DNA of 64,000 nt, taken from an uncultured virus (IMG/VR IMGVR_UViG_3300027779_000014). Its lineage: Duplodnaviria; Heunggongvirae; Uroviricota; Caudoviricetes. The first letter of the stretch is position 1; the number at the start of each line of letters is the position of its first letter. The translations under genes and the position numbers were made by a program. Shown piece after piece: positions 10,655 through 64,000 of this stretch. The stretch is from the IMG/VR virus record IMGVR_UViG_3300027779_000014. One strand, given 5' to 3'. Under the pieces are notes generated by a model. It was not told the origin of the DNA. It was given only the letters and a program-made list of their open reading frames with translations, and searched no databases.

Positions 10655-11139
10655 AGATTCGCTTGATTCAGCATTACTGCGTCATTTCCGGTTGGATTAA
10701 CTGCTGCAGTGAGTGAACCAGAAGCTAAGTAGTTGAATCTTTGACCGATTTGTGCGTGAGGAAGTCTCGATAAGAGGCTTGCTCCAGTGAAACCTATTGC
10801 TGCTGCTCTTGCCTTTCTCCTTGCGCCCTTTGCTAGATACTTCTGATTGATTGCCATTTCTTGTACGAATCCTATTGCTGTGAGAGTTGCGCCGAATCCA
10901 ACGACCTTCCCTAGAGAACTACCGTAGAACTGCCTGGTGAACGATCTGTATTGTTCTTCCGAGGTAGCGAGATTTTTTAGCAAGAGTTCATCTACAGTAG
11001 TTACCATCGTACCGAACAGACCTAAGCCTGCTGCACAAGTGGCAAACACCTTTGCGTTCTCTTTGGTTAAGCCTAAGTCCTTTGCAGAACGCTGGGCATC
11101 CCTCAAAATCTTAGGGGTTTTAGGTTTCTTGGAGGCCAC
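10651..11139 (-). CDS. Virion membrane protein
   Basis: Basic N-terminus and three Gly/Ala-rich hydrophobic segments. Confidence 0.65.
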   Translation of the reverse strand: MASKKPKTPKILRDAQRSAKDLGLTKENAKVFATCAAGLGLFGTMVTTVDELLLKNLATSEEQYRSFTRQFYGSSLGKVVGFGATLTAIGFVQEMAINQKYLAKGARRKARAAAIGFTGASLLSRLPHAQIGQRFNYLASGSLTAAVNPTGNDAVMLNQANL

Positions 11140-31388: not shown

Positions 31389-33858
31389 TGCCCCCTTTTG
31401 ACGGTGCTAAGGAGAATGGCCCTACCCTTTGTCCTCCAGGTCGCCTTCCTTCATATTGCATTACGCCATTTAATCCAACTTGAGACACATAGCACACGAT
31501 TTTATCGTATTTTAATCCAGTAGATTCGAATAGTTTGGAAACTCCTCTGTTGTAATTTATATCTTTCGACTTCAATACGGCATCTTTGAATATTTGGCCG
31601 CCGCCATCAGTGAGTGTTTTCTTGAGTTTTATTTCTCCGAAGTCTTGTTCAATTCTTTTTAGTAGTAAGCTAGTTTCTTTAGAGTATTTTGAGCCTTTTT
31701 TTGCAGATATTTTGCCTGTGGCTAGGTCATGCTGAATTATCATCCTAGGTAGTATGATCCTGTGAGGGACAAGATTGTTATTGTCTTTTCTTTTACCGTA
31801 AATTATCTGTATCTTTGGGTTTCCTTTATCGACTTGAGTACCAGTTTTCATTACTGTATCCATGACTTGTGCCTTAGTGTTGTACACCTTTCCTTTCCAC
31901 CTGTATGTTTTATTTTTTTTGTTATAGACTGGTTCTTGGCCTGTGGCGTAGTGTTTGTATAAATCATTTAGACCTAGTTGATCCCTTACTTTCTTGATAT
32001 ATTTTAAGTTTTTATTTGTCTCAGTCAATGTTTTCATATTTATTTGACTTCTTGGAACTAAATCAATTGCTATTGCCTTACCCCTTACAGAAGGGTTTTT
32101 CTTCACATTCGCTCTAAGAGTTTTTTGCCCTAGGTTATCTTCCAGGGCAGTTGCAAGATCATTGTCGCCTAGTTCATCTATCTCTTCCAGACCCTTGCTT
32201 CTTGACGCATCTGTGTAGGCGTCTGATATATCTGACCCTCTGCCTAAATCTTCTACGAATAAATCTATTTTTGGTAGGAAAATATTATTACCAAATTTGT
32301 CTAACTTCCCGAAATCACCTACACTGTACCCATCATCAGATGGCCTTGCAACTACCGTAAGTCTGCCTTTAGGCACTAAGTAATCTTCACCTATTCCTTT
32401 AGATAAGTCTGCATGTATTATAAATCGTATGGAAATTGTTTCTTTCGGCCAGTTTAATGCAATTCCTTCAGATAGTTCCTTTAGGCCCTCCTTACTTTTT
32501 ACATCCCTACCTGATATCGCTGCTTCGAATAATCCTGACCAATTAGTAGTCAGTGCTAATGATTTATTTTCTGATCCATAAACGGCTGCTGTCAGACCAA
32601 GAGTTCCATTATTCTCCTTTGACGCTAGTTTCATTTTTACGATTTTAGCTACTTTGTCATAGGTCATTTCAATATTAGTTTGATTTGCTGCTTTCATTGC
32701 CGCGTGCATGTTGGATTTTTTCCAACCAGTTTTGAATGGTGGCATAGAAGTGTCTAGTGAGACAAGAAGTGGTGAAGGAGAACCTTTCAAGTATGTGTTC
32801 TTAGAGTCTCTTTGCGCGTTATTGTTATTGTTTTTGTTGTTTCGGCTTCGTGAATTACGAACTATGGCCCTATTTGCGGTTCTGTTTCCCTTAAAATCAA
32901 GAGTTGAAGCTGTGATTACAAACATATCCTTCAAACCTGATTGGAAAGTATTCATGTTCAAGCCGTATTCGCCGTTGAGACTTCTCAATCTCATCCTAGC
33001 TTCTTCAATCTCTCCTCTCTGGTAAGACCCGACTGTACTTTTAGCCAGTTCAAATGCTTCGAATGTCCTACCTGCAGATGCGTTTTCAAAGTCTTCGCCT
33101 CGATCATCTTGTGCTTGGGCTAATGCTACACTGAATTTCATAATATCTCCTTCCGTCACTAGTGCTTTCAAAGTTATCAGTGATTGGTGTTCTACACTTG
33201 TAAGTGGTTCGATTGAGGGATATATTTGCTCACTGATTTCTGGGTCATCTTGAGTCATTTGTGCTACAGTGTACCTATTGTAAGAGTTAATCGGCAGATT
33301 GTTTAGTAATCTAATTTGTAATCCCCTTAAGTCGTGTATTGTTAACCCCGCCATTGTGTCCATTCTCTTAGAGAAATCCGGACAATTTTTTCTTATTTCT
33401 AGAGTCCAAGCATGAGCGTCTTTTATTTGTGTGCCTGATTTTAACTTGGATCTTTCATTTACTCCAGTGATCATCCAATACAGTAAGTCACCAATAATTG
33501 CTGCATTAAAACTATCATAATTTTCTGGTACTTGAGATAAGTAGCCAGAGTGATCCCTGTTTAATTCCCCCCAGTCATTTGCGAAAGCGAATAATATATC
33601 CCTAGATAAGATAGCGATATCTTCTGTTTTTGAGTATCTTCTGATTTGTTCTTTATTTACTGAGTTTATGAGTGAATAAACATCTAACAAATCCGGATAT
33701 TTACTTACGGTGGAAAGAGTTCCTTTTCTTCCTTCATCTTTTCTTAGGGTGGTTGTTTTAGTTCTTCCACCTTCTTTTGAACCTAAAGGCCCTGATGAAT
33801 CGTAGTATCTTTCACTGTCACCAACAGGGTTTTGTATTATTTTTTTACGGCTTGCCAT
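31375..33858 (-). CDS. Large hypothetical protein (827 aa) with basic C-terminal module
   Basis: Long ORF, N-terminal MASRKKIIQNP, Lys-rich module after KKNPSV. Confidence 0.8.
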   Translation of the reverse strand: MASRKKIIQNPVGDSERYYDSSGPLGSKEGGRTKTTTLRKDEGRKGTLSTVSKYPDLLDVYSLINSVNKEQIRRYSKTEDIAILSRDILFAFANDWGELNRDHSGYLSQVPENYDSFNAAIIGDLLYWMITGVNERSKLKSGTQIKDAHAWTLEIRKNCPDFSKRMDTMAGLTIHDLRGLQIRLLNNLPINSYNRYTVAQMTQDDPEISEQIYPSIEPLTSVEHQSLITLKALVTEGDIMKFSVALAQAQDDRGEDFENASAGRTFEAFELAKSTVGSYQRGEIEEARMRLRSLNGEYGLNMNTFQSGLKDMFVITASTLDFKGNRTANRAIVRNSRSRNNKNNNNNAQRDSKNTYLKGSPSPLLVSLDTSMPPFKTGWKKSNMHAAMKAANQTNIEMTYDKVAKIVKMKLASKENNGTLGLTAAVYGSENKSLALTTNWSGLFEAAISGRDVKSKEGLKELSEGIALNWPKETISIRFIIHADLSKGIGEDYLVPKGRLTVVARPSDDGYSVGDFGKLDKFGNNIFLPKIDLFVEDLGRGSDISDAYTDASRSKGLEEIDELGDNDLATALEDNLGQKTLRANVKKNPSVRGKAIAIDLVPRSQINMKTLTETNKNLKYIKKVRDQLGLNDLYKHYATGQEPVYNKKNKTYRWKGKVYNTKAQVMDTVMKTGTQVDKGNPKIQIIYGKRKDNNNLVPHRIILPRMIIQHDLATGKISAKKGSKYSKETSLLLKRIEQDFGEIKLKKTLTDGGGQIFKDAVLKSKDINYNRGVSKLFESTGLKYDKIVCYVSQVGLNGVMQYEGRRPGGQRVGPFSLAPSKGGIANE

Positions 33859-45560: not shown

Positions 45561-46316
45561 TTATCTGAACTCCTTTGGGATTAATCTTTGTTCTTTTGGC
45601 AATAGGTCATATGATTCGACCAGGAGAGGTATGTATGACGAGATTCTGACTGATTTACCTAATTCAAATGGATGGATTAGTTCTATTGGAAACCATTCTG
45701 CTCCAAATAGAGGGTTAGCACTGAATGTTTTTGTCGCTAACATCACATGAGAATATGCGCCTTTAGGTCCGCCTGCATCTACTATCATCAACATTGTAGG
45801 ATAACCTGCCGCGTTTAATGCACAGGCGCAGGCTGCTGCTATGTCATCACAATCTGCGCCAGATTCTCCTGCTTGAATATCTCTGATTACTTTTGGTGGT
45901 GATTGGAAGAGTTCTACAGAGTATGGGTCTTTCTGGTAACGGTATGATCCTTGGTCGCCATACATTAACGGAGATCCTACCTTATCATCAGGAGTATTGA
46001 TATTGTGGCTTCCTTGAAAATAAGTGACTATTTTCTGTATTTCGCCTAATTCATCGTGATTTCTTAGACCATACCCTATTATTTTCCCATTGAATAGCCT
46101 TCTTGTGAATTGAATCACTTCTGGATCTGAAACATATTTTGATGCCATCTCTTGGAGGACTCTGATTGTTGTTTCGAAGGCTCTGTGATCACCGTTGAAT
46201 GTATATCTAGCTTGTTGCCTAACACCACTACCTGATACTGACACTTCGTAACCCCTATCCGAACCCCACCTAGCATTAGCAAGTGGGTTTGAGAATGCGG
46301 CGTTCTCTCCTACCAT
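45561..46316 (-). CDS. Transglutaminase-like cysteine protease (candidate maturation protease)
   Basis: YRYQKDP..ELFQSP, GADCDDIAA, YSHVML, WFPIE (Cys-His-acid triad). Start moved to ATG 46316 because the track's N-terminus is the class-C promoter. Confidence 0.75.
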   Translation of the reverse strand: MVGENAAFSNPLANARWGSDRGYEVSVSGSGVRQQARYTFNGDHRAFETTIRVLQEMASKYVSDPEVIQFTRRLFNGKIIGYGLRNHDELGEIQKIVTYFQGSHNINTPDDKVGSPLMYGDQGSYRYQKDPYSVELFQSPPKVIRDIQAGESGADCDDIAAACACALNAAGYPTMLMIVDAGGPKGAYSHVMLATKTFSANPLFGAEWFPIELIHPFELGKSVRISSYIPLLVESYDLLPKEQRLIPKEFR

Positions 46317-46369
46317 GGTTGTCCCATAGGGGTTATGGGAATAAACTCGACCCGTTACGCCGTTACGGT
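46317..46369 (-). promoter_or_regulatory. Class-C promoter, second copy
   Basis: Same 29-mer, TAACCCC and ACAACCATGG, with spacing identical to 35112-35164. Confidence 0.8.
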
Positions 46370-47731
46370 TCACCTTCCGTTTTCTTCATTGTTGTCGAAA
46401 TCGGTTAGTACCATTTGCCCTTCTTCATGAACTACTCTTTGCCCTCTTAATCTTGCTTCAAACCTCTCTATGACCCGATTTGCTCGTAATTGTTGGGCTG
46501 CGAAGAACTCTTCTAGGTGCTGATTAAATCTTTCTTCGAAGGTATTGTGCATCCTCTCCACTAAATTAGTCATTTCTGATTCAATATTGCTTGCTATTCT
46601 TTCTGTGGCAGAAACTCCTTGTTCCTCTATAGTTTCAATTGATTCGTTTGCTACCTTGGCTGTGGATTCGGCCATTTCGGTCAATTTGGTGTGAATTGTG
46701 TCCATCACCATAACTGGATTTGCTTGCATTGCCGCTTGTTCAGGTGTTTTGGCATCTAGGTGTACGAAACCTGAACTTAACAGATCGTGTGAACCATCTG
46801 CAGTGATTGAGCCATCGGCATTCATTGGCATCATCCTTGTTTCGCCCGATTTTCTTCTTTCCTTGACTTGGCGTGCCAATTCAGGATTGAATATTAGCGT
46901 GCCTGCTTCATATTGTTGCGAGTTTCTTTGATTAGGGAGCCCTAGAGACCACCCGTATGTCTTTGAAAGTTCGGACATCACATGATATAGTGAGTCGGCT
47001 ATACTTTTGTTTATCTCTGCGCTATCCATAGCTTCTTCGGGAGTCACTATATGACGATTAGGTAGCGTTATTCTAACTGGATGAGGTAAGCACCAACTCC
47101 CATAAACTGCATCTCCCTCTTCATTATGGCTCATTCTCCTTCTAAAACGGATTCTCCAAGGCCCTATTGCCGATTCGATGTCCGGTGCAGCAAAATGAAT
47201 CCATCCTCTGATCTCTTTTCCATGAGGAATTACTCCTTCACGCTTCCATTGCTCAATCTCCCTATCCCATGGCATTCCGCCTCTTGGTCCGTCGGTATTG
47301 ACTGGTAAATTCCAGTCAAGTCTGTGTATATCGATGCGTGGTTCTACACCTCCTGGTAGCGGGCTCCAAACTGGAGTGTCACGATGTACCCCCATTTGGG
47401 ACTGCAACTTGTAGATGATTTTCTCCATTTCTTTAGATCGTGGGCCTGGCTTGTATGCTTTGAACCTCAAACTGACTGAACCTTCTCTTACTTGTTCCAT
47501 TTCCTTTTGATGCTCTATGAATGAGTCTGACTGAATGATGTACTGCTCTTTACACAGTCTCCTGACCCATCTACTGATTGTTGCCTTGTCTTTGCCTAAA
47601 ATCTCCGCTATTCTGTTAGCGATGTGCCTTTCGTTGATTAGAAGATGGTATATCGCCGCCTTCTTTTGTAAAGTGGTTTCCGAAAACCACTTAGTTGCAT
47701 CTATGGTTGCAGTGTTTTCAATCATGTGCAA
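46370..47731 (-). CDS. Winged-HTH protein with uncharacterised core and coiled-coil tail
   Basis: IANRIAEILGKDKATISRWVRRLCKEQYI is an HTH; AGGAGG SD upstream. Confidence 0.7.
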   Translation of the reverse strand: MHMIENTATIDATKWFSETTLQKKAAIYHLLINERHIANRIAEILGKDKATISRWVRRLCKEQYIIQSDSFIEHQKEMEQVREGSVSLRFKAYKPGPRSKEMEKIIYKLQSQMGVHRDTPVWSPLPGGVEPRIDIHRLDWNLPVNTDGPRGGMPWDREIEQWKREGVIPHGKEIRGWIHFAAPDIESAIGPWRIRFRRRMSHNEEGDAVYGSWCLPHPVRITLPNRHIVTPEEAMDSAEINKSIADSLYHVMSELSKTYGWSLGLPNQRNSQQYEAGTLIFNPELARQVKERRKSGETRMMPMNADGSITADGSHDLLSSGFVHLDAKTPEQAAMQANPVMVMDTIHTKLTEMAESTAKVANESIETIEEQGVSATERIASNIESEMTNLVERMHNTFEERFNQHLEEFFAAQQLRANRVIERFEARLRGQRVVHEEGQMVLTDFDNNEENGR

Positions 47732-50919: not shown

Positions 50920-51543
50920 GTGGTCGTAGGGGCGGAAAGCCAAAGTTACGGCGAGTTAGAATTCGTAGAAAGCCCCGACGAACCGACTGAAAGAGAAAAA
51001 AACATTCGATTAAGATTAATCCTTGGAGCATTTACATTTCTTTTAATTGCAACATTACCACTAATCCAATATTATTATGCAGGTGCTTTTCTATATGTCT
51101 TGGCAGGTGGGATTGCTTTTACTATAGGTACTAACCTGACTATTGGGATATTATCTATCAGAATAGAGGACAAAGCGGAATTGATGGAGAGGAGGATGGC
51201 CGATTTACTGGAAGAGTTAAGCACCTCTACAGATTTATTAGGAGATTTCAATAATCAGTTGCAGCAGTTCCCATTAGAATCCATGCTTGAGACTATGGAA
51301 AAGGCTAGAGATGAGTTAGGACCGGCTTTATCTCAAATGAATGGAGTTAGTTGGACTGAAATCTCTACTGCTTTCGCTGCGGTTATGGAATGGTATGAAA
51401 CACTTGATACTGATAAGATAAAGTCGATGATTGCCCCTTTTGTAGTTGAGACACCTCAGATAACATTGATTGATGATCCCTTCAATGATTCGATACCAGC
51501 GCCGGATTTCTTCCCACCACCGCCACCTAGGCATCGAAATTAA
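50920..51543 (+). CDS. Membrane protein (2 TM plus coiled coil)
   Basis: LILGAFTFLLIATLPLI and AFLYVLAGGIAFTIG. Confidence 0.7.
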   Translation: MVVGAESQSYGELEFVESPDEPTEREKNIRLRLILGAFTFLLIATLPLIQYYYAGAFLYVLAGGIAFTIGTNLTIGILSIRIEDKAELMERRMADLLEELSTSTDLLGDFNNQLQQFPLESMLETMEKARDELGPALSQMNGVSWTEISTAFAAVMEWYETLDTDKIKSMIAPFVVETPQITLIDDPFNDSIPAPDFFPPPPPRHRN

Positions 51544-52028
51544 TCTTTGAATACGCTCGCTAGTAAAAATAGGCCTGCTGCATTTACTACTTTACCAAAC
51601 ATCTCATTTGATTGAGTTGAGTTCCAATTTCCAGATAGCGCATAATTAGCATAGTGCTCACAATTTCTTATTGCGGGGTTGTAATCATCACGATTCATAA
51701 ATTTCTTAGCTCTTTCTAAAACTGGTATGGGATTTTCTGGAACGGAGACGACTTCTATGCTCCTTCCTTCTGAAAATAGATCATAAGGCGTTAATCCTAT
51801 GTGTACTCCAGTGTATGAATTATCTTTTGTAGTGGGCCACAGTGCATTCACTATTTTTAATTTTTTATCTTCTAGTGAACTGCCCTCGTATGGACCACCG
51901 AATTGATAAATTAACTGTTTTTGACTTTCAGGGTGATAATATTCTGATGCTATTCCGTAATGATATAAATTCCAACCTATTTTTCTCCTTAATCCGGCTC
52001 CTATAGGGTAAGGCATGTCTTCTGACAT
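51540..52028 (-). CDS. LRAT-like permuted NlpC/P60 protein (acyltransferase/phospholipase/peptidase)
   Basis: N-terminal YHYGIA, C-terminal YNPAIRNCEHYANY, hydrophobic tail. Confidence 0.8.
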   Translation of the reverse strand: MSEDMPYPIGAGLRRKIGWNLYHYGIASEYYHPESQKQLIYQFGGPYEGSSLEDKKLKIVNALWPTTKDNSYTGVHIGLTPYDLFSEGRSIEVVSVPENPIPVLERAKKFMNRDDYNPAIRNCEHYANYALSGNWNSTQSNEMFGKVVNAAGLFLLASVFKD

Positions 52029-52071
52029 GGCCTTCGACTACCGCTAGGCCGGATATGTCTTTCGGATAAGG

Positions 52072-52082
52072 TCAAACGGCAA
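52072..52082 (+). promoter_or_regulatory. Class-B promoter motif TCAAACGGCAA
   Basis: 17 nt before ATG 52100. Confidence 0.75.
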
Positions 52083-52099
52083 TCACCACTCATAGCCTC

Positions 52100-52279
52100 A
52101 TGGAAGAGGCGAAAAGCGATGATGAACCTATTCTAACTCCAGTAGATACTTGCTACATCGTTATGCGAGATGTCCCTATTACCATCAAGGCGCAACTTGT
52201 AATCATCAAATATAAACGAGGTTGGAAGTCTTGGGCAGATATGGCTTATGATGTAGTCAAAGAGTTTGGTGAAGAATAA
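52100..52279 (+). CDS. 59-aa RHH-like protein (not in the ORF track)
   Basis: MEEAKSDDEPILTPVDTCYIVMRDVPITIKAQLVIIKYKRGWKSWADMAYDVVKEFGEE. Confidence 0.65.
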   Translation: MEEAKSDDEPILTPVDTCYIVMRDVPITIKAQLVIIKYKRGWKSWADMAYDVVKEFGEE

Positions 52280-52280
52280 G

Positions 52281-52697
52281 ATGCGTGATGACCACATAGA
52301 ACAGATTATTTCAGTAGTAAAAGGCACATTAGGCCATCCTTCCGAACAGCGAGAATTAGTCCTAAGAAAGAGATTGCTTGATTTGAAACTTAAATCTGGT
52401 CCAGAGGGCTATGTAAAAGAGAGAAGAGATCCTATTGCTTTGTGGATTGCCAACGCTAGAAAATGGGCTACAAATAAGTGTTTGATGGGGAACAAAGTTG
52501 ATATCGACATGGTTGTAAATTCTAATCCCCTACCTGATGGTGTAGATAGGCGAGCAATTGGTGGTGTTTTCAAGCATCCTACTTTCAAGAGAGTCGGAAC
52601 GGTGAGAACAAGGAAGGCATCAGGAGGATTTAGGACAAGTGGGCAATATATCTTATCTAGTCAAACTATAGTTCCAGATGCCATAACAGATTGGTGA
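52281..52697 (+). CDS. Basic putative DNA-binding protein
   Basis: PLPDGVDRRAIGGVFKHPTFKRVG resembles a small phage wHTH family; start moved to ATG 52281. Confidence 0.6.
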   Translation: MRDDHIEQIISVVKGTLGHPSEQRELVLRKRLLDLKLKSGPEGYVKERRDPIALWIANARKWATNKCLMGNKVDIDMVVNSNPLPDGVDRRAIGGVFKHPTFKRVGTVRTRKASGGFRTSGQYILSSQTIVPDAITDW

Positions 52698-53457: not shown

Positions 53458-56115
53458 ATGAGCGACGACCTGGTGATGCACTGGCTCGGCGCTCTTCGTG
53501 AGATATCTAAAGATAGAGTTCCAGATATATACCTAGTCAATGTAGCCAAAAGATTAGGTGGAGTTCAGGGAAAGAAGCCTTTAGCACCTGACTATTATCG
53601 GGATATTGGAGAAATAGATGATAAAGTCCTAGAGAAGATCATTAAGGGATTAATGAAACAGAGACAGAAGGATGCCGTCATTCCAGGTGAGAGGGTCGGT
53701 GTTATCGCAGCACAATCATTAGGAGAGCCTGGTACGCAGATGACTCTACGAACATTCCACTATGCAGGGGTCGCATCAACGGTGAATCCCCTCGACAAGA
53801 TGATTGCCGATCAGTCAGGAGTAAGGACTGTCTATACAATGAGTCTTGGATTGGGAGAGGATTACCGTTGGGATAGAAGTCGTGCAGATAGCCTTCGACA
53901 TGGCCTTCTTAGGACTAAATTAGGAGATGTTTGCGATATTTACTTTGAAAATGATGATGTCCCTAAACAGACTTATGAGGAACTAATTAGAGTTTCAAAA
54001 AACGAAGGTTTAACGCGAGAGGCTTTGGAATTGCAGCAAGGTCGAATCATAGCAAATCTCCTAGATAGAACAACACAAAATAACATAATTATCACACCCA
54101 AAAAGGAACTTAAAGATGATGAGGAGGGTTATGATGAGAATTATGAATATATAGACATAGAAGACATTGTGGGAATTCTGCAAACTATGTTGAAAGTCAA
54201 TTGGAATGGAGAACGACGGAAAGATCCAGGTAAAAGTACACGCTTCGGCGAAGATGTCGTTGTCTATATGCCTGGATTAAGAGGCAACATTAGGATTGAG
54301 CGTTTTGACGATTCTGTAAGAGTCTCCGTTCCCCATTTCCCACCATCTTACAAACTGTCTTTGTATCATCTTCTGAAAAAGATTCAATTTTGTAACAGTT
54401 GTCACTCTGGCATACAATATATGAAGACAATGAGCCAAAGTGGTAAAGCGGTTTCACAGAAAGTAGTGGAAAAGGGGGAAGATAAAGATTATGTGAGCCT
54501 TATTAATCAATTTGTAGAAGCTGTCGAGGGAGGTCAAGGATTGAGTGATGAATGGAAGGGTGCGGTTTCATCTTCTGCAAGGGATGATGAGTTTGATTTT
54601 CAAGAAGAAGTATTCACTGAATTAGGAGGAGATCCTTCGTTTAATCCAGAAGAATGGATTGCAGTAATAAACGGAGATATTCCTAGTGGTTTGGAATATG
54701 GTAGTCCAGATCACATATTAGGCATTAGGAGGTTTTGGACTTTAACTCCTGCCAGTTATACTCTTGAATTGGCAGCAGGAGTCGATTTCAAATGCTGCCC
54801 TCTGTGTGGATTGGGCTGGGAGATTTCTTCTGCAAGTTTGAGACAAGTAGGGGAGTTTGATATCGATCATCTATTGCAACCCCAAATTACAAGTTCCGAG
54901 AAATCTGGCATGAAAGAAGGTTATAGAAATCTCTATTCTGAACTGGTTCGTGTTTCTGAATATCCGTTAGACGATAGGAATGTCGATGTCGCCAAACAAC
55001 CAACATGGGAGCCTTCTTCTCTTGGCAGCCCTGCAAAGAAGGTTGCAGAAAAATCTGTTACGATTCCAGGCAGCGTCTATGAAGGTGTTTATCCAGGAAG
55101 CGGTAGATTAGGTAGCCTTACTGATTACCCAGTACAGGCGATGTCTTCTGGTAGAGGAATAGGTGGTGGCGTAGAAAGTGAATGGTTCATCTATGTTGTA
55201 GGGGCAGATGTGAAGAACTTCTGTAACTCAGAATTAACTGGCCCACCAGCTAGAAGTAAATATAGAAATAAAATTAATGAAGGGAAAGGTTGGGAAGGCA
55301 TCCCCTGGACATCTAAGTTAAGAAGTTCTTTTGGTGGTTACTTCGCCGCTATTGACGGTGATGATAGGTTTGACTTCTTACGATCTACTTGTGATGATCC
55401 ACGACAAGTATTTCACGCCTTAGGCATTGAAGCTGCTAGAATGGTTATTTTGGAGAATATGTACCATATAATCACTAACGATGATGCTGATATTGCAGAG
55501 TATGGTATCGCTAGTGCTGGGATGGAAGTCCATAATGGTCATATGACTTTATTGGCAGATTCTCTTTGTAAAGATACCACTATAACAACGATTCTTAGTG
55601 CTTCTGCTATAATGGGTGGAAAGGGTGTTGTAGGGAAAAAGGGAACATATTCCCTTGAGATGCCTGATGGCAGTATAGAAAATTATGGCGATATACTTAC
55701 TATTGCTTCATATGAAACTGCAAATAGAGTTTTATTTGATGCAGTACCTATGGGAGTTATAGATCCATTAGGGACGGTAAAGGCGGAACAAATAACTGGA
55801 ATAATTAAGGGTACGGGGTATCAAGGTGTGCCGCATAGAATTAATGGAGATAAATTGAGCCTAGTTGATGATTTAATACACTTAAAAGATGTAGAATCGA
55901 AGGCTATGAGAAATCTTTCATCTTTTGCGATAGAGAAGTCTGGCATGAGTTATAATGATTTAATGGTTAGATTACCTTTAGATCGTACTAAAGTAACAAA
56001 GGATATTTTGGATGATTTATTCGCTATGGAAGAATTTAGAGCAGAAATAGAAATTGTGAAGACGACTAAGAAAGAAATCGAAGAGATTTCTATTACTCTA
56101 TCTCAAATGCCGTAG
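53458..56115 (+). CDS. rpoA2: Divergent, enlarged archaeal RNA polymerase subunit A'' (Rpo1C) homologue
   Basis: [30 protein letters not shown] (trigger loop), [32 protein letters not shown]; 885 aa. Confidence 0.9.
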
Positions 56116-57050: not shown

Positions 57051-57245
57051 CAGGTGGGCGGAGAGGATTGGAGAAATAAACATGAACTGTGGAAACTGCC
57101 GAAACACAGATTGAGGAACTCAACGCCTCCCCACCCGTTTGTCGAAAGGCTACCTCTCATTTCAGTATTTCTGTGGACGAGGAGCTATGGTTGCAGCCTT
57201 GCCTGCCGCGCGGTCAGGCCCCCGTCCGATTTAGGATAGGACCAA

Positions 57246-57337
57246 TGCCGGTTAAGAGTTCGGGTTGGCAAAAAAATATTACCGACCCAGAGAGTTCGGG
57301 TCGGCAAAAGGGGGGAACCCACCTCATAGAGATGGGC
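57246..57337 (-). terminator. Tandem stem-loops with U-tract at the 3' end of the gene array
   Basis: Minus strand: GCCCATCTC-TAT-GAGGTGGGT, then TTGCCGACCC-N9-GGGTCGGTAA followed by TATTTTTTT. A 19-bp direct repeat lies at 57255-57273 and 57291-57309. Confidence 0.6.
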
Positions 57338-57649
57338 TTATCTTGCTTGGAGAGCATTCCTTATGGATTGATTGAGATTACTACCCTGGCCTTTCCCTTC
57401 TTTTGATAAGATAGGGTAAGCACCGTGGCTAGCATCAATGATTCTTGTTGCTCGTCCAGTGATCGTAGTATGGTAAATGCCATTTTTAATACTAAATGTA
57501 GCTATAAGGTAGGCATCTAATGATGATTGCCCCGCTTCTTTTAATTCATCTATCATTTCTTTTTCAATTTTGTTCCAAATCGTTGTTCCAGTAAATCCAC
57601 CAATTGGTGGCGCGTGGTTCGAAGACATGATTGCCCGATTGGGTATCAT
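57338..57649 (-). CDS. Hypothetical protein, last of the array
   Basis: Preceded by the variant motif ACTGACCATAT. Confidence 0.55.
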   Translation of the reverse strand: MIPNRAIMSSNHAPPIGGFTGTTIWNKIEKEMIDELKEAGQSSLDAYLIATFSIKNGIYHTTITGRATRIIDASHGAYPILSKEGKGQGSNLNQSIRNALQAR

Positions 57650-57668
57650 TCTTTAATATGGTCAGTAA

Positions 57669-57935
57669 TTACCACTCATAGGTTGCCCAATGAGGGTGTA
57701 TTTCCGCGTCTGCGTCGAAAAGAAGGAGTTTTGCCCCTTCATCGTATGCGGCTTTCATAATCGGCATCAGCCATTCAGGACAAGTTTCATCCCAATGTGC
57801 GCCGTTTGGTTCACTTATCCAAACTACAAATCCATATTCGAATGCACGAACTCTATAGTCTCCCCAATCTGGAGAGGTGTTCGGCATATGGCCTGTCGAT
57901 AGATCTAACATTTTATCAAATTCTATGTTTGTCAT
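57669..57935 (-). CDS. DUF5983-like protein
   Basis: LDLSTGHM...EYGFVVWI...PEWLMPIMKAA..GAKLLLFDADA...YEW. Confidence 0.7.
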   Translation of the reverse strand: MTNIEFDKMLDLSTGHMPNTSPDWGDYRVRAFEYGFVVWISEPNGAHWDETCPEWLMPIMKAAYDEGAKLLLFDADAEIHPHWATYEW

Positions 57936-57942
57936 GGTCAGT

Positions 57943-58218
57943 TTATAGATGGGTTTTGTCCCATGATATTTCAGTGATCCCTTCTGAAAGATTCCATTCT
58001 ACTAATCCATAAGATTCGCAATTTAGACATTCTATCATCACAGAGAAGCCGTTTTGATCGACTCTTCCTACGCCTTTTGGGTTGCTGGATATCCATTCTT
58101 CATGGGGGCAATGCTCTATTTCATTTATTTTTTCTGTTAGTTCTATAATTATATTTTTCATTCTTTGCAATCTATCAATGTGATTTTCACATAATGTTGC
58201 TGTTCTTAGTTTTGTCAT
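57943..58218 (-). CDS. Coiled-coil plus Zn-ribbon protein
   Basis: CPH...CLNC. Confidence 0.7.
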   Translation of the reverse strand: MTKLRTATLCENHIDRLQRMKNIIIELTEKINEIEHCPHEEWISSNPKGVGRVDQNGFSVMIECLNCESYGLVEWNLSEGITEISWDKTHL

Positions 58219-58226
58219 GGTCAGTA

Positions 58227-58721
58227 TTACTCATTCCAGTTAGATTTCTCTATGAATCCGTTTTCTTCTAGGTAATCGAGTCCGAATGAACCTAATAGTT
58301 CTTCTCTTAGTTCTTGCACCGACATTTCGAGGAATTCCCTTGTTGTCTTGTAGCCTAAATCGATTAGAGGTTCTCCGTTCTTCAATATACCTCCACGGTA
58401 TATGTTGTGGTATTGCTCCTCGACTGTAAAGAGGGGGTTTACTTCCCCTACATCAAGATCTTCATCAGTGATATTGAGTACAATATCTCCGTCTGGTTCT
58501 TCTCCTACTCTAAATTCTGTACCTAAGATGAAATTTTGCGTGTAGAAAATTCTTTCTTCGAATTCCTTTGTCCCTTCTGATGTGAGAACGATAAATCCGT
58601 CTTCCATCCCGAGTCCTAATCTCCACTCTAAACCTCCTAGATCGACATAACTCCTGTCAATCATTATTCTAACTCCTTCTGGTAGTTTTGCTGTAATATC
58701 TTTAGTTTCTTTTCTTGTCAT
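58227..58721 (-). CDS. Acidic hypothetical protein
   Basis: Motif-anchored start. Confidence 0.7.
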   Translation of the reverse strand: MTRKETKDITAKLPEGVRIMIDRSYVDLGGLEWRLGLGMEDGFIVLTSEGTKEFEERIFYTQNFILGTEFRVGEEPDGDIVLNITDEDLDVGEVNPLFTVEEQYHNIYRGGILKNGEPLIDLGYKTTREFLEMSVQELREELLGSFGLDYLEENGFIEKSNWNE

Positions 58722-58728
58722 GGTCAGT

Positions 58729-59031
58729 TTATCGCATCTCTGTAACCACGCCCTCGTAAATCGAGCCGCTTGGTTCCCAGTCCACTCTTTGTGGATTGTT
58801 TTCTGCTTGTTCTTCTGGTTCTACCCAAATATGAGAACTTAATTCGTTTCTTCCGTCGTAGGAAGCACTACAAAGTGCGTTGTATGCCTCATCATTCGCT
58901 TCTTCATCTCTGATCCCTGTTGCATAGGCTCTGCTAAGAGCCCTGAATAACAGGGCTTCAAGTTGTGATGGTTCGAAGCTAAAGCACTCCTTCATTTGTG
59001 CTTCTAAGATTTTATCTGATGTTTCTGTCAT
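58729..59031 (-). CDS. Acidic hypothetical protein
   Basis: Start moved to the motif ATG at 59031. Confidence 0.7.
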   Translation of the reverse strand: MTETSDKILEAQMKECFSFEPSQLEALLFRALSRAYATGIRDEEANDEAYNALCSASYDGRNELSSHIWVEPEEQAENNPQRVDWEPSGSIYEGVVTEMR

Positions 59032-59039
59032 GGTCAGTA

Positions 59040-59408
59040 TCACTCAGGCCATGGAATATCGGAGTAGTATTTGGAAAACACTTCAAAGATAGCATCGTTT
59101 TCCGCTTGTTGGTCGATGTCATTCGCGTCGTAATCCTCTATGTTTTCTTCAAGAAGCCTCGCCTTAACTTCTAAGATTTCATCCATGTGCTTATTCAACC
59201 TGTCTATTTCGGTTTCTTCGTAGCGTTCTGTATAATCGTGGATTTTCCAAGAACCAATCGTATTTCCGTTGATATCTTGTATGCTTCCACCGTCATTTCC
59301 GTTTGCGATAAGATCTACTATTTCTGCAAAGATTCTTTTTGTCTCTGGTAGCGGTGTTTCGTCGAACGCCGCATTATCTATGTCATATTCAATATGAATT
59401 TTTGTCAT
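59040..59408 (-). CDS. Conserved small viral early-region protein
   Basis: DNAAFD...IQDINGNTIGSW pattern, common in phage early regions. Confidence 0.7.
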   Translation of the reverse strand: MTKIHIEYDIDNAAFDETPLPETKRIFAEIVDLIANGNDGGSIQDINGNTIGSWKIHDYTERYEETEIDRLNKHMDEILEVKARLLEENIEDYDANDIDQQAENDAIFEVFSKYYSDIPWPE

Positions 59409-59418
59409 GGTCAGTATG

Positions 59419-59643
59419 TTATCCGTCTAGTTCTAGTAGGCAGTTTTCGTATTCTTTATCCCATACCTTTGTTGTCAAAGTACATTGAGAACCTTGTTCC
59501 AAATACCCTTCTTTTATTGCCCTTGCTAGGTCCCAAGGAATATTCTCTTTATCAATTGCTTCCAATGAGTTGGGGGCTTTGACTTTGGTTGATACTGTCA
59601 ATAAAATTGTTTTTGACACATAGTATTCATTTAATTTGGTCAT
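59419..59643 (-). CDS. Hypothetical protein
   Basis: Motif-anchored start; VKAPNSLEAI. Confidence 0.7.
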   Translation of the reverse strand: MTKLNEYYVSKTILLTVSTKVKAPNSLEAIDKENIPWDLARAIKEGYLEQGSQCTLTTKVWDKEYENCLLELDG

Positions 59644-59657
59644 GGTCAGTTGGTGGC

Positions 59658-61031
59658 CTAAGCCACCGTGATGTTCATTGCTTCCCTAGATGTTGGGAAC
59701 GCTTCGAGATTAACTCGGCCTTCCACTACATCCTTTAGAAGATGGTGAACATCATATAGCCTCTTGTCGAGAGATTTTAGATTGAGCGTTCGCCCCGCCA
59801 TTTTTCTCTCTCCTGAGCCATTATCTGTTTTTGGCCCTGCCCAAGCGGGCTTATGTGTAAAGCCGCCTGTCAGAACATTGTATGCATGGAAGGCGGTTCC
59901 TACCGCTTCTCCCTTGACTTTTACCCAATCTCTATCAGGATCTTTCCATCCGTCTTTAGAAACCAGGAACATGTGTCCTTGATGCATTTCGTAGTCAATG
60001 ATTTCCCCAGTTCTTTCGTTGAGAATTGGGTTAGCCTTCGGTAATGTCAATATCTTGCGCTGTTGAGCAGCAACAAGTAACTTATCGAAGATTTCGTCAG
60101 TCATTTCATAGTTTTGTAGAGACTCTACAAAGAGTAGTTCATTCTCTACATCAGTTATCATCTCGCCTATTTGAGAACCAAACTTATCCCAATCAATAGA
60201 TCCGATTGAGTTTTCGGTGTGTCTTAACGAAAATAGATGTCTTTTGCTGCTAGCAACCATTCCATTTAGGCATGCGACTCTCTGAGCGACTCCTACCATT
60301 CGTAGGCTGCCAGATCCGTCTAAGCTGTTGTGGATTGATATACCGTAGTTGTATAAATCTCCAGTTCTTAGGTCTGCGGCTTTCATAATCTTTGATCGTG
60401 ATTGTCCATCTGGTGTCATTGAGTAGTTGGTTCCGTTTCCGAAGCCACCACGATTTGTCACATCTATGTCCATTCTAGCCTTCTTTCCTTGGTCGTAGCA
60501 GGTAATTGCCCAACTCCAACCAGCCCTGTCGCAGTATCTTGCGATAGGAGCGTATAGATCTGTATAGGAAACCACCGCATATCTGTCACTCACCACTCCA
60601 AGTGGTGCGCCGATAGGTTGGTTCTCAGAGGATTGCTTCGGATTCAAGATCAGGATATGGTTAGGCCTTCCTTGAGTGTTTGTCGAAGTGTAAAATCCAC
60701 TTTCTATGTCATTCTCACGCTCTTTTCCGTCTGCGTAATTGTTGTTATCATATACACCTGCAGCAAGCAGGTCGTCTTTCAGTTCTCCTTCAAGATTGAT
60801 TTGTACGGGGAACGATAGCGGCTGGAAATTCCAGTCGCAGGTCGATGACCCTCTATTACCTCTCTTTAAGAAGGCAAAACCTTCTCCTTCTGATTCGGCC
60901 ATCGAATTAGCGATTGCCGTATGTCTGTCCCAATTTGGGATTTCATCATTTTCCGTCATAGTCTCGTTCCCTAGCAAGTTGCTAAGTTCGATAACTTCTA
61001 TATTGTCATCATTATTTGATGTATCTGTCAT
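59658..61031 (-). CDS. DUF932/DUF945-family protein
   Basis: LGVVSDRYAVV...IHNSLDGSGSLR...RVACLNGM...LRHT. Confidence 0.8.
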   Translation of the reverse strand: MTDTSNNDDNIEVIELSNLLGNETMTENDEIPNWDRHTAIANSMAESEGEGFAFLKRGNRGSSTCDWNFQPLSFPVQINLEGELKDDLLAAGVYDNNNYADGKERENDIESGFYTSTNTQGRPNHILILNPKQSSENQPIGAPLGVVSDRYAVVSYTDLYAPIARYCDRAGWSWAITCYDQGKKARMDIDVTNRGGFGNGTNYSMTPDGQSRSKIMKAADLRTGDLYNYGISIHNSLDGSGSLRMVGVAQRVACLNGMVASSKRHLFSLRHTENSIGSIDWDKFGSQIGEMITDVENELLFVESLQNYEMTDEIFDKLLVAAQQRKILTLPKANPILNERTGEIIDYEMHQGHMFLVSKDGWKDPDRDWVKVKGEAVGTAFHAYNVLTGGFTHKPAWAGPKTDNGSGERKMAGRTLNLKSLDKRLYDVHHLLKDVVEGRVNLEAFPTSREAMNITVA

Positions 61032-61037
61032 GGTCAG

Positions 61038-61259
61038 TTAGTCTCCTATGTATTTTGAAATAGGAATTAGGTCTTCTATATCGCATATTCGACCTGCCAT
61101 CGCTTCTTCTAAATAACTTGCAATTGACTTCATTGTTGCAAGTCTTGGTCCAAAATCAACATATTGTTGAAGACTTGCCAATACTTCATTGTATATTGTT
61201 TCTTTATCTTCTTTCGCCATTTGACTTATGTAAGTCGTTTTTTCATATTTCATGGTCAT
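61038..61259 (-). CDS. Hypothetical protein
   Basis: Start moved to the motif ATG at 61259. Confidence 0.7.
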   Translation of the reverse strand: MTMKYEKTTYISQMAKEDKETIYNEVLASLQQYVDFGPRLATMKSIASYLEEAMAGRICDIEDLIPISKYIGD

Positions 61260-61401
61260 GGTCAGTATCACTCCTCTTCTTTTTTTAGGTCTTTTACTAT
61301 ATTCTCAATCAATTTTTTTAGTGCTTCTTCGTATGTCATTTTCATTTGTATTCCTCGGACATCTTAGATTGAAATAGATTGTTAATAAATATATGGTCAG
61401 T

Positions 61402-61902
61402 TTATGCTAGGATTAATTTCATAGCATATCCATCATCGCACATAGCATAGTTCTCCACTATGTAGGAGAAGTCGTTTTGTAGCGTAAATGAGCCTGTTGT
61501 CCCTCTACCGATGTAGAGGTTTACTTGCTCACAACCTACAATTACTTCTTCTGGTTCGTACATGACTAATTGTCTTTGTTGAGAACCTCTCCATGGAACT
61601 TTGAGCCCTTTGACTCCATCCATCTGTGCTAATTCACCTGCTAGAATCCATCTCCTTAGCGGTGTGCCGCAGAGTATATCAGAACCCTGGTGGGCCCTGC
61701 AGGCTTGTGCTATCCTGTTGAGTGTCTCAACGGGAATTCTGTCGAAATTTCTGACAAAGACATCGACTTGCTTTACTTCTTGGTTTTTTCTTGTAAAGTA
61801 AGTATTGGCTATTCTTACACTTACCTTAGCGTCTGGCGCTATGGAAAGAATCGCTGCTTTCAACATCTTTGATATTTCGGTTGTTTCTAAATATCTTGTC
61901 AT
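61402..61902 (-). CDS. Protein with LPD29-like N-terminus
   Basis: YLETTEISKMLKAAILSIAPDAKVSVR; start moved to the motif ATG at 61902. Confidence 0.6.
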   Translation of the reverse strand: MTRYLETTEISKMLKAAILSIAPDAKVSVRIANTYFTRKNQEVKQVDVFVRNFDRIPVETLNRIAQACRAHQGSDILCGTPLRRWILAGELAQMDGVKGLKVPWRGSQQRQLVMYEPEEVIVGCEQVNLYIGRGTTGSFTLQNDFSYIVENYAMCDDGYAMKLILA

Positions 61903-61904
61903 GG

Positions 61905-62165
61905 TCAGTCTATGATTTCTATGTGATTCCCCAAATGAGGGTAATACATTCTTCCCGCTATTTCTTCCCTTTCTGGGATTGCGTATTCTGCTTCTAAGTG
62001 TATGTGGTCGCATTCAGAGCCGCAAAATTTGGTAGGCGCTATTTTCTTAACCACTCCAACTATGAAGGAATCAAACTTCCCAATCCGTCCGAAATCAAAT
62101 GATTTTATTCTATCTCCGACTTTTAACTCGGATCTATTTTTCTCTGCTATCTCTGTTTCAGTCAT
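61905..62165 (-). CDS. Small SH3-like protein
   Basis: LKVGDRIKSFDF...FIVGVVKKI; start at ACC-ATG-AC 62165 (partial motif). Confidence 0.65.
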   Translation of the reverse strand: MTETEIAEKNRSELKVGDRIKSFDFGRIGKFDSFIVGVVKKIAPTKFCGSECDHIHLEAEYAIPEREEIAGRMYYPHLGNHIEIID

Positions 62166-62175
62166 GGTTTTGTCA

Positions 62176-62340
62176 TTATACAATATAATGTTCACCTTCG
62201 ATGTATATGGTCTTAACTCTACCATCTTCGTGCATCTTCAAGTAACATGCCTTACACAAATCACCAAACTCTGGTAGTGCATAGAAGTAAGGTTTTCCAC
62301 ATTGATATTGTTCACATATTCTCTCTCTAGTTTCTGTCAT
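62176..62340 (-). CDS. 54-aa Zn-finger protein (not in the ORF track)
   Basis: MTETRERICEQYQCGKPYFYALPEFGDLCKACYLKMHEDGRVKTIYIEGEHYIV; motif-anchored start. Confidence 0.75.
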   Translation of the reverse strand: MTETRERICEQYQCGKPYFYALPEFGDLCKACYLKMHEDGRVKTIYIEGEHYIV

Positions 62341-62349
62341 GGTCAGTTT

Positions 62350-62628
62350 TTAGTACAATATCTCTTGTCTAGTTATTCCAACTGAATCACAGTGTTTGTG
62401 AAACTCTAACTCAATATTATTCAAATATTTTAATTTAGATTTTATTTGACTGTAAGATAACTCGCCGTCACACGCAAGATTTTCTGGTGAAAGTCTGCTT
62501 CCTAAATGATTGGCGATGTCCTTTGCCGTATTTTCATTAAGAGGGATCGTAATGTCGGTCCCTCCTGTTATGTTATTCCATCTGTTTATATCTTGGATGA
62601 AATTTCTTAAATTTTCTATTTTTGTCAT
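62350..62628 (-). CDS. Conserved viral hypothetical protein (LSPENLxCDGE family)
   Basis: RLSPENLACDGELS. Confidence 0.7.
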   Translation of the reverse strand: MTKIENLRNFIQDINRWNNITGGTDITIPLNENTAKDIANHLGSRLSPENLACDGELSYSQIKSKLKYLNNIELEFHKHCDSVGITRQEILY

Positions 62629-62639
62629 GGTCAGTCCTC

Positions 62640-62954
62640 CTAATCGGAGAGTTTGCTTTCATAGAAGAGCGAATCCCATAACTCGCGGGGTTCCCCTAGT
62701 TCTTCCCTAGCATGGAATGTCATGGTATCGTGATCCAGCATTTCATCAAGAAGGCAAATTAACCCATGCAAAGCCTCTAATTTATCTAAAAACAAAGGTG
62801 CGTCTGCCATAAGTTGCCTATCTGTGTCACTAGCAGGTGTATCATCGTCCAGATAGATTGCTTTCAATCCATCGGCCCAAACTATTTCTTGCCATTTGCT
62901 AGTAGGTGTGCGTCCGAGGTATCGTGCCTCGTCAATTTTTCTATGTTCTGTCAT
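62640..62954 (-). CDS. Phage-type hypothetical protein
   Basis: RTPTSKW...DRQLMADAPLFL resembles the HTPGPW...ARLIAAAP family; start moved to 62954. Confidence 0.65.
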   Translation of the reverse strand: MTEHRKIDEARYLGRTPTSKWQEIVWADGLKAIYLDDDTPASDTDRQLMADAPLFLDKLEALHGLICLLDEMLDHDTMTFHAREELGEPRELWDSLFYESKLSD

Positions 62955-62978
62955 GGTCAGTGGCAATTCTAGTTGCAT

Positions 62979-63176
62979 TTAATCTTGTTCTGGGCCTTCT
63001 AATTGGAAGGCTGCGAATGCTTTCTGCATCATTTCTAGCAGTTTTGATGTTCCTGCTTGGACTAGATAAGCGCCGTTTTGATTCCATTGTTCCCACATTT
63101 GTTCATCTATGTAAAATTTTATTTCTTTTCCATTGGACATATGTATTGTCCCTTTGATTTTTTCTATATCTGTCAT
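62979..63176 (-). CDS. Hypothetical protein
   Basis: Motif-anchored start. Confidence 0.7.
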   Translation of the reverse strand: MTDIEKIKGTIHMSNGKEIKFYIDEQMWEQWNQNGAYLVQAGTSKLLEMMQKAFAAFQLEGPEQD

Positions 63177-63185
63177 GGTCAGTAG

Positions 63186-63599
63186 TTAAGCAGCCCTCTG
63201 TAAGAGCTGCTTAATTTGTTCTGCGGTGAATTTGAATTTCTTCCCGTCATTTCTTGTAACGGAAATTGGATACTTTCTCCTTTTTCCGTTTAATCCTGAG
63301 ATCTTGAAGGTATGGTCGTTCTGCGTGAATTCCTTTCCTAGATCGTCTGGTGACAATCCATAATGGATAGCATTTGTCTTGAAATCTTTAACCTCTTTTG
63401 TCTCAATTGTTCCGTCATCGTTTGTTGCAGATACTTCAATTTTGAAGGTTATAGGAAATATGCTGTCACCTGTGTAACTGGCGTTTCCTAATTTTACCTG
63501 CAGTCCTTCATGGATGTTATCAAGAGAGCCATCATTGATTTTGGCTTCAATGGTTCTTCTTAACCTCATTATAACATCACTGGCTTTTTGCTTTGTCAT
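63186..63599 (-). CDS. Conserved viral hypothetical protein
   Basis: YGLSPDDLGKEF..FKISGLNGKRRKYPI..DGKKFKF. Confidence 0.7.
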   Translation of the reverse strand: MTKQKASDVIMRLRRTIEAKINDGSLDNIHEGLQVKLGNASYTGDSIFPITFKIEVSATNDDGTIETKEVKDFKTNAIHYGLSPDDLGKEFTQNDHTFKISGLNGKRRKYPISVTRNDGKKFKFTAEQIKQLLQRAA

Positions 63600-63601
63600 G
63601 G

Positions 63602-63718
63602 TCAGTTTACCTTGTTAGGGCACCCTTCTTGATAGCATTCATCGGGATAATTTACCGCGAAATTTGCTTCTATAGGTTTGCCACATTTTGGGCAAGTATA
63701 ATATCTGCTTGGACTCAA
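63602..63718 (-). CDS. 38-aa Zn-finger peptide (not in the ORF track)
   Basis: TTG start; SPSRYYTCPKCGKPIEANFAVNYPDECYQEGCPNKVN. Its stop is the TGA inside the 12-mer. Confidence 0.55.
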   Translation of the reverse strand: MSPSRYYTCPKCGKPIEANFAVNYPDECYQEGCPNKVN

Positions 63719-63813
63719 TGTATCACTCCGCAGCATCTATTACATGAGACTGGATGACTTCCTCTGTATCGAGGATGAGGTTCATCGCATTCACATTCTG
63801 AGCTAATTGTCAT
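63715..63813 (-). CDS. 32-aa Cys-rich peptide (not in the ORF track)
   Basis: MTISSECECDEPHPRYRGSHPVSCNRCCGVIH; AGGTGA SD. Confidence 0.55.
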   Translation of the reverse strand: MTISSECECDEPHPRYRGSHPVSCNRCCGVIH

Positions 63814-63814
63814 C

Positions 63815-64000
63815 TTATTCACCTAGTATTGGCTCCATTCGGCCTTCCTTCGGTTTTACTGTGATAGTATAACCCTTTCTAGTAACATCTGCATCCCAGG
63901 CTATTTCGGGGTTGGTTACTTTCCGAATCATAGGATCCAGAAGTTCGTCAGTCACTTCTTGTGCTATCTTTCTCGCAAGATAGTCGAAATCTTCTTTTCC
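63815..64000 (-). CDS. C-terminal part of an ORF entering from the right edge
   Basis: Open frame GKEDFDYLARKIAQEVTDELLDPMIRK...MEPILGE-stop. Confidence 0.55.
   Translation of the reverse strand, partial: GKEDFDYLARKIAQEVTDELLDPMIRKVTNPEIAWDADVTRKGYTITVKPKEGRMEPILGE

Follow-up and report, generated by a model that had tools for sequence, protein, structure and literature searches.

What does it mean when a long run of unrelated viral genes begins, one after another, at the same short word? The question was raised by positions 57,338 to 63,718 of a 64,000-nucleotide stretch of an uncultured virus (IMG/VR IMGVR_UViG_3300027779_000014; the whole stretch is called the window below), where a first-pass annotation had described 14 small genes that all start inside one 12-mer. 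A whole-window count found 14 exact copies of ACTGACCATGAC, all on the minus strand between 57931 and 63606 and none elsewhere, compared with a mean of 0.02 in shuffled sequences; allowing up to two mismatches added a single match, at 35404. The gene array is real, and it is larger than had been described: in this virus family, the word stands directly before the start codon of about 45-100 consecutive genes. Four observations bear on its role, namely the word itself, its lineage specificity, a discontinuity of RNA at the word and the shuffling of genes at it. We suggest, with moderate confidence, that the word is an RNA punctuation mark, most likely cut between its final C and the following A to give leaderless single-gene messenger RNAs (mRNAs).

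The word and the array that it punctuates

The 12-mer proved too long as the unit. What is conserved is the heptamer ACTGACC followed by a purine, usually the A of ATG, and the trailing 'AC' is a strain bias. In an alignment of 65 array sites, in which the heptamer and AT are fixed by the search itself, position +4 is A in 53/65 and +5 is C in 41/65. ATG follows the heptamer at 61 of the 65 sites, and the +1 base is a purine preceded by a pyrimidine. Two additional copies, at 61395-61401 and 57660-57666, read ACTGACC-ATA without ATG at +1, and the distance from the word to the ATG start varies (1, 3, 10 or 49 nt after it). The rule that all proteins begin Met-Thr holds inside the window and fails beyond it, because +4 and +5 vary over the array and the relatives described below prefer other second residues. 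Positions -47 to -8 before the word carry no conserved sequence or information (65 sites), and no TATA box, Shine-Dalgarno (SD) site or terminator was found accompanying it; as had been stated, the word contains no SD core. On the cleavage reading set out below, each gene would be a self-contained unit that could take any place in the order.

The punctuated array measures about 38 kb with 65 sites and runs 31 kb past the window end in the IMG/VR contig G001, which is identical to the window over 58400-64000. G001 carries 62 copies of ACTGACCAT, all on one strand, and eight copies of a variant, ACTTACC, in its first 5 kb; because it may be the same assembly as the window, it extends the sequence and lends no independent support. 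The window units are as follows.

57338..64000, minus: 3' end of the ~38-kb co-oriented accessory (probably early) block with ACTGACC, continuing in G001 (loci L035/L036)
63186..63606, minus: heptamer 63600-63606 and 137-aa gene
62979..63183, minus: heptamer 63177-63183 and 65-aa gene
62640..62961, minus: heptamer 62955-62961 and 104-aa gene
62350..62635, minus: heptamer 62629-62635 and 92-aa gene
61905..62347, minus: heptamer 62341-62347 and two genes, of 54 aa and then 86 aa (start with degenerate CAAAACC only)
61402..61909, minus: heptamer 61903-61909 and 166-aa gene, no Pfam match
61268..61401, minus: heptamer 61395-61401, then ATA; an open reading frame (ORF) of 25 codons follows a 49-nt leader that contains the SD-like word GAGGA
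61038..61266, minus: heptamer 61260-61266 and 73-aa gene
59658..61038, minus: heptamer 61032-61038 and DUF932 gene, 457 aa
59419..59650, minus: heptamer 59644-59650 and 74-aa gene
59040..59415, minus: heptamer 59409-59415 and 122-aa gene, with homologs elsewhere in the G003 and G004 arrays
58729..59038, minus: heptamer 59032-59038 and 100-aa gene
58227..58728, minus: heptamer 58722-58728 and 164-aa gene
57943..58225, minus: heptamer 58219-58225 and 91-aa gene
57669..57942, minus: heptamer 57936-57942 and DUF5983 gene, 88 aa
57338..57666, minus: last heptamer 57660-57666, a 10-nt A/T leader and a 103-aa gene with a homolog that likewise closes the G003 array
57173..57337, minus: array tail conserved with G003, with hairpins, a duplicated short element and a hairpin plus T tract (57307-57279); probable end of the block's transcription

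Two window genes lack the word, at 61905-62165 (degenerate CAAAACC) and 61268-61345 (SD-led). The DUF932 and DUF5983 genes had been named correctly; the reported LPD29-like gene had no match among 55 window proteins at E<=0.01. The cargo of the arrays (L035/L036, L208, L209, L211) includes PCNA-like, ArdA, Mom, PAPS-reductase-like and AAA proteins and several DNA methylases.

Four relatives were compared: two complete genomes with direct terminal repeats (G003, G004) and two fragments (G005, G006). Each array is dominated by one heptamer before ATG, with 61 ACTGACC (and five ACTTACC) in this virus, 60 ACTGACC in G003, 87 ACCGCTC (and 11 ACCACTC) in G004, and 69 and 44 ACTGAAC in G005 and G006, respectively. 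Among the arrays compared, one lineage's main word was never found before ATG in another lineage's array. Homogeneity within a genome is near-perfect, and the minor variants change mainly at -4 and cluster in the array head. G006 is close to G003 (core genes mostly 50-77%), yet its word differs at one base. Such a concerted switch of 44-87 copies among closely related viruses raises an evolutionary question of its own; fast turnover via identity-requiring crossovers could explain the homogeneity. This lineage specificity had been overlooked in the first-pass annotation. The word is not an ordinary start context in 301 Thermoplasmatota genomes, where ACTGACCATG occurs 0-15 times each, the actual host not being identified.

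The junctions are mostly 0-10 nt long. Across the five genomes, 306 motif-led ORFs were examined, of which 259 stop near a next copy and 47 have no copy near their stop; 254 of the 259 stop before +1 (63 of them inside the heptamer) and five after it. Stop-start ATGA overlaps were counted at 8/40 window core junctions versus 2/259 near-motif array cases, and SD-like words at 24/321 motif-led starts versus 23/48 core genes. Of 349 sites, one has a T6 tract in the 60 nt upstream, promoter-like (sigma70-like) matches number 18 versus 18.3 in shuffles, and the surroundings of the word are more unpaired than the flanks, with no terminator stem-loop per repeat. No flanking arms, dyad or attC-like structure was found at the word.

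The word also bounds non-coding RNAs. In G003-G006, the blocks start beside a divergently transcribed TFB gene, pass through a head region that holds repeats, tRNAs and large structured RNAs (z about -9) with the word at their borders, and end in a conserved hairpin tail; in G004 and two relatives, nothing but a hairpin follows the last copy. A conserved structured RNA in the array head (L035:1036-1462 in G001, L209:14055-14250 in G003, L249:10053-10244 in G006) is bounded by the word in G001 and has no Rfam match. G004 carries a word-bounded structured RNA of 828 nt (L213:16758-17585, minus, z -9.1) that the G001/G003 model does not match. Rfam gave no match in the window and only tRNAs above the gathering score at the three head loci. 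In G005, each small hairpin RNA, and likewise a tRNA, has ACTGAAC in front of it and ACTTAAC behind it; the copies around the small RNAs are tandem, 8 nt apart, and the RNA stems begin at +1.

The G005 run (L245:11893-12470) consists of tandem 50-78 nt hairpin RNAs whose paired ends are followed by A (CCA-like). They fall into two types, in one of which the middle varies; each is flanked by the word, and the run includes a tRNA. An intron-containing tRNA lies in the G004 array (L213:10413-10540, minus), 4 nt after a word copy.

RNA ends and gene order at the word

Metatranscriptome contigs of three runs (X7, X8, X9) were aligned to L036, which holds 37 copies and includes window 58400-64000. 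The figures rest on 24 of 98 pieces, picked mainly as the longest, a choice that should favour bridging. Even so, four copies were bridged, compared with 32.7+-3.7 under random placement (minimum 18 in 20,000 trials). Left ends fell 0-40 nt after +1 in 17/24 listed pieces (1.9 expected) and right ends within 45 nt before +1 in 9/24 (2.2 expected), clustering at -2 to -11, with three X8 pieces terminating at exactly -2; no right end of the 24 fell 1-45 nt after +1. All seven covered motif-less junctions were bridged, including the degenerate start at window 62165. The bridging deficit and the start enrichment were present in each run separately, and six pieces of a DNA run (X11), a small control, showed neither.

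Individual units agree with these counts. An X9 piece (63575-63225) lies within unit 63186..63606, and another (62307-61949) crosses the inner junction of unit 61905..62347 without reaching either heptamer. Pieces of X7, X8 and X9 begin 14, 20 and 23 nt, respectively, after +1 of the DUF932 unit. One X8 piece ends at 58723, inside heptamer 58722-58728, and one bridges heptamer 59032-59038. Contig ends thus cluster on both sides of the word; the cleavage and initiator readings of the first-pass annotation had called for RNA 5' ends there. Leader joining or trans-splicing was considered and rejected: no shared leader was seen among the 8 of 22 RNA loose ends listed, six of which are adapters, and a loose end at the heptamer had no match >11 nt in G001, G003 or G004 and none >=10 nt in the window comparison.

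Gene order has changed, with breakpoints at the word. Consecutive shared genes keep their order in 7/35 array cases versus G003 and 0/15 versus G004, compared with 38/40 and 25/30 in the core; over ten array pairs, 4/33 neighbour pairs persist. Window unit 58216-58728 and a G003 unit share 87% identity over a stretch that begins and ends at the word, and a 291-nt identity block of G003 and G006 is bounded by each virus's own word. In run X11, where another gene thus sits at heptamer 58722-58728, one contig runs from the end of gene 59031-58729 through 12 shared bases into a gene whose place in this strain is 8.9 kb upstream, and a second joint returns to gene 58721 through 17 shared bases with a short side of 20; both joints have a depth of about 2.5. 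These joints read as one gene relocated between two word copies. Single-gene circle joints were not among the listed joints of four runs, whose contigs drop rare variants. A serine recombinase (resolvase and recombinase domains) was found in all four relatives, far from the array.

G003 2417-3370: serine recombinase
G004 72020-72817: serine recombinase
G005 9999-10823: serine recombinase
G006 45941-46900: serine recombinase

No recognisable site for it was found at the word, and no integrated copy was found; no tyrosine recombinase occurred among the Pfam-scanned proteins, which cover part of the ORFs of the complete genomes. As an evolutionary fact, the proposed crossover is supported by the scrambled order, the word-bounded identity blocks and the relocation breaking in the word; it is rated secondary because no dedicated cassette recombinase site was found. 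The shuffling is real and follows from identical 10-17-base junctions together with selection for intact units; it looks secondary to the RNA role.

What acts at the word

If the word is cut in RNA, the accessory block of 38-45 kb would be transcribed one way from the head region beside the viral TFB gene, and a virus-specific activity would cut at or next to the C-A step of each ACUGACC. The upstream message would retain its stop codon, the downstream message would begin at AUG and be translated leaderless, and tRNAs and small RNAs would be freed by the same cutting. The identical word plus start codon (10-17 shared bases) would also be the crossover point that moves single genes. One such cut would account for both RNA ends, for the stop codons being kept, for the lack of SD sites and for copies that surround tRNAs. 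The four interpretations offered earlier are partly supported as a set, and RNA cleavage is the best supported of them, given that ends of RNA contigs flank the word on either side. The cleavage chemistry, an enzyme and early timing are inferred.

Several points weigh against cleavage. Five ORFs extend beyond +1, and four bridged sites show incomplete separation. In G005, a hairpin with a T8 tract lies 21 nt before the first main-array copy, and an isolated G004 copy precedes a tRNA on the opposite strand; both fit initiation. Antisense copies are absent from array genes (0 versus 4.2 expected, P 0.016, one of four tests) and sense copies are not significantly depleted (4 versus 7.1 expected), which fits a DNA-level role better. 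In X9 alone, the 3'-end enrichment is not significant (p 0.16). The RNA data are assembled contigs with no strand or end chemistry, in which contig stops are a weak hint, and the three runs are probably one campaign. Scans for a recombinase or endoribonuclease, as had been proposed, returned the serine recombinase and no nuclease, either by Pfam (55 window, 62 G001, 46 core/head and 144 G003/G004 array proteins) or by PHROGs (30 proteins); RNase H was found in G004 alone, and most array proteins have no family.

The strongest competitor, which we regard as possible and less probable than cleavage, is that the host RNA polymerase (RNAP), with a viral Rpo1C-like subunit and TFB, reads the DNA word as a TATA-less initiator and starts at +1, the incoming transcript being ended at the same word. 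It predicts RNA boundaries identical to those of cleavage, and the purine after a pyrimidine at +1, the terminator-like G005 hairpin, the isolated copy in G004 and array genes free of antisense copies all suit it. However, it requires release and re-initiation within 1-2 nt, known to us solely from negative-strand RNA viruses. The TFB grouping does not follow the word, core genes hold 17 antisense copies versus 8.4 expected, and the tandem copies around small RNAs lie 8 nt apart. An initiator for a virus-modified RNAP, as proposed earlier, is possible: the family encodes an Rpo1C-like subunit and a TFB. A plain promoter with read-through leaves the 3' ends unexplained. The two factors are located as follows.

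53458..56115, plus: RNA polymerase subunit Rpo1C (A'') of virus type, 885 aa, matching solved Rpo1C at E 1e-22
G003 116130-117080: TFB homolog, transcribed away from the array
G004 58114-59205: TFB homolog, transcribed away from the array
G005 23513-24607: TFB homolog, transcribed away from the array
G006 31897-32886: TFB homolog, transcribed away from the array

The Rpo1C-like protein, a candidate reader of the word, has an intact trigger-loop motif and an insertion of about 400 aa with two conserved CxxC pairs. It heads a clade of 17 proteins with 48-100% identity, some on contigs up to 129 kb, has more distant members in the 50% library and forms a family of its own. It is present in both complete genomes and missing from the G005 and G006 fragments. 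Its structure model has a pLDDT of 42 for the whole and 57 for the insertion, and the insertion model had no Foldseek match at E<=0.001. The TFB-like protein (E 1e-10), found in all four relatives covering the head, is divergent and fast-evolving, with a zinc ribbon and cyclin repeats; G005 and G006, with the same word, share 22% identity, whereas G003 and G006, with different words, share 37%. Its gene adjoins 110-165-bp tandem repeats, perhaps an origin or a promoter. No RNA polymerase or transcription proteins beyond these homologs were detected.

Other readers were tried and rejected. A guide RNA was sought in the array head, where the G001/G003 RNA holds a wobble complement of the word; part of this complement is paired in a stem, it shows no co-variation in G006, and G004 lacks a counterpart. 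No gene tracks the word rather than the core among the families common to G003, G005 and G006, a set without Rpo1C. Family scans, guide-RNA tests, co-variation and folding identified no reader.

A dedicated DNA cassette system, in which the word serves mainly for recombination and affects expression only incidentally, is improbable. The scrambled array against a syntenic core, identity blocks that end at the word on both sides even between viruses with different words, the reciprocal X11 joints, the near-perfect homogeneity and the serine recombinase in all four relatives speak for it. However, the word lacks arms, dyad and attC-like structure, the recombinase gene is far from the array, no circle joints were among those listed, and the X11 joints are shallow, one having only 20 bases on its short side. 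The RNA data weaken it further, as RNA ends, missing SD sites and copies around tRNAs are left unexplained, and any expression-preserving rearrangement must break at these junctions anyway.

Two further readings are less probable still. Leaderless mRNAs are common in archaea, and an ordinary short promoter per gene with read-through would suit the position at +1 and the viral TFB and Rpo1C; read-through would bridge junctions, but four were bridged where 33 were expected, and right ends concentrate between -2 and -11. A translation (re)initiation signal pairing with 16S rRNA is equally poorly supported: ACTGACC has an exact complement near position 1135 in all three Thermoplasmatota 16S genes tested and a fixed position before ATG at 61/65 sites, but ACTGAAC and ACCGCTC have none in the same genes (one of three words), a 7-mer matches by chance in about 9% of 1.5-kb sequences, and the word also precedes tRNAs and hairpin RNAs, lies 1, 3, 10 or 49 nt before ATG and coincides with discontinuous RNA.

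Across these readings, we think it rather probable that a virus-modified archaeal polymerase or a partner cuts or restarts RNA at each copy to give leaderless single-gene messages, that the same word is a crossover point homogenising and reordering a 40-kb library, and that the word changes wholesale with its reader.

The virus, its host and comparable systems

The window belongs to a virus-like element of some 120-130 kb whose core genes have archaeal SD sites and which encodes a thermosome, an ATPase and the Rpo1C-like subunit; its virus status rests on the IMG/VR classing and gene content, with no capsid fold confirmed. The host is probably a marine Thermoplasmatota archaeon. A thermosome scan gave matches at 32-34% only, and the viral tRNA-Lys is at best 90% identical to small Thermoplasmatota genomes. 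No provirus or metagenome-assembled copy was found in genome contigs with the marker used, and Atlas look-ups returned nothing above 0.8.

Elsewhere in the window, two small proteins (92-95% to G003) and an ATPase at 6523-7302, 8895-9488 and 12797-13558, with no solved relative by sequence, form a possible capsid and packaging module. A long coding repeat with a 39-bp period (fibre-like) occupies 15-4000, a basic protein rich in Lys/Arg/Ser/Thr is encoded at 11156-12469, and a 1637-aa protein with guanylate-kinase and DUF5754 domains at 15132-20045. A local inversion surrounds an LRAT-like gene (window 51540-52697, G003 66386-68047). The RusA gene of G003 and G004 has no window match, and L040 in G002 is an unrelated coding repeat.

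Early mRNA of T7 is one polycistron cut into single messages by RNase III, a host enzyme, at stem-loops; we know of no sequence-specific endoribonuclease that punctuates 60-100 genes at the start codon. Very short words at +1 occur in poxvirus TAAATG, phiKZ TATG and the yeast mitochondrial nonanucleotide initiators, and in negative-strand RNA viruses gene-end and gene-start signals give abutting single-gene RNAs by stop-start. Virus-encoded transcription machinery is common to such viral short initiators and to this virus (Rpo1C-like, TFB-like); those viruses, however, carry whole polymerases, whereas only Rpo1C and TFB homologs were detected here. Integron arrays differ in having attC sites with inverted cores, not seen at the word, and a tyrosine integrase, of which the Pfam-scanned proteins showed none.

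PeSL cassettes of the T4-type phages RB49 and phi1 are repeats between non-essential genes that combine expression control with modular crossover points (PMC2839356), and here, too, genes are gained, lost and reshuffled with breaks inside the repeat; PeSLs, however, are sigma70 promoters with terminator stem-loops (PMC2839356), whereas the unit in this family is seven bases directly joined to the start codon, lacks promoter boxes and a hairpin, and recurs in 44-87 copies. Start-Associated Sequences (SAS) of cluster K mycobacteriophages are 13 bp long, with an SD core AGGAG, 3-7 bp upstream of the start; they are likewise asymmetric, in one orientation, confined to the non-structural or accessory arm and tied to ATG starts (PMC3203893). 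The word differs in lacking an SD core, in directly adjoining ATG and in coinciding with RNA ends. Halovirus HF2 has intergenic repeats that are 29-58 bp AT-rich promoters, with very long transcripts reported (PMC8707807); repeats before accessory genes of an archaeal virus are shared, but the word has no AT-rich box and its RNA is discontinuous. MazF-hw cuts RNA at a seven-base recognition sequence, and cutting by MazF, MazF-hw or ToxN at a short word (up to seven bases) can give leaderless mRNA or release array monomers (PMC5408214), but no such nuclease was found here by Pfam or PHROGs. The word thus resembles PeSL in shuffling, SAS in placement and T7 or MazF in the proposed chemistry, and lacks the defining features of PeSL, SAS, HF2 repeats and integrons. 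Literature searches, including one with the literal words, gave no description of a punctuating word, most subscription papers lying outside the searched corpus, and no report of a virus redirecting archaeal host transcription with its own Rpo1C and TFB; the available parts of PMC11706807 and PMC12451623 do not mention RNA polymerase.

These results point to an undescribed way of splitting a long gene block into single-gene messages. If true, a very large set of accessory genes could be expressed in a third way, besides operons and one promoter per gene, which would also explain how single genes become portable with almost no intergenic DNA. The reader would be a naturally reprogrammed 7-8-base RNA-cutting or initiation factor; if it is a nuclease, nature already provides variants of three specificities that would be useful as RNA tools. 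The system also opens to test how an archaeal virus may redirect host transcription through its own Rpo1C and TFB.

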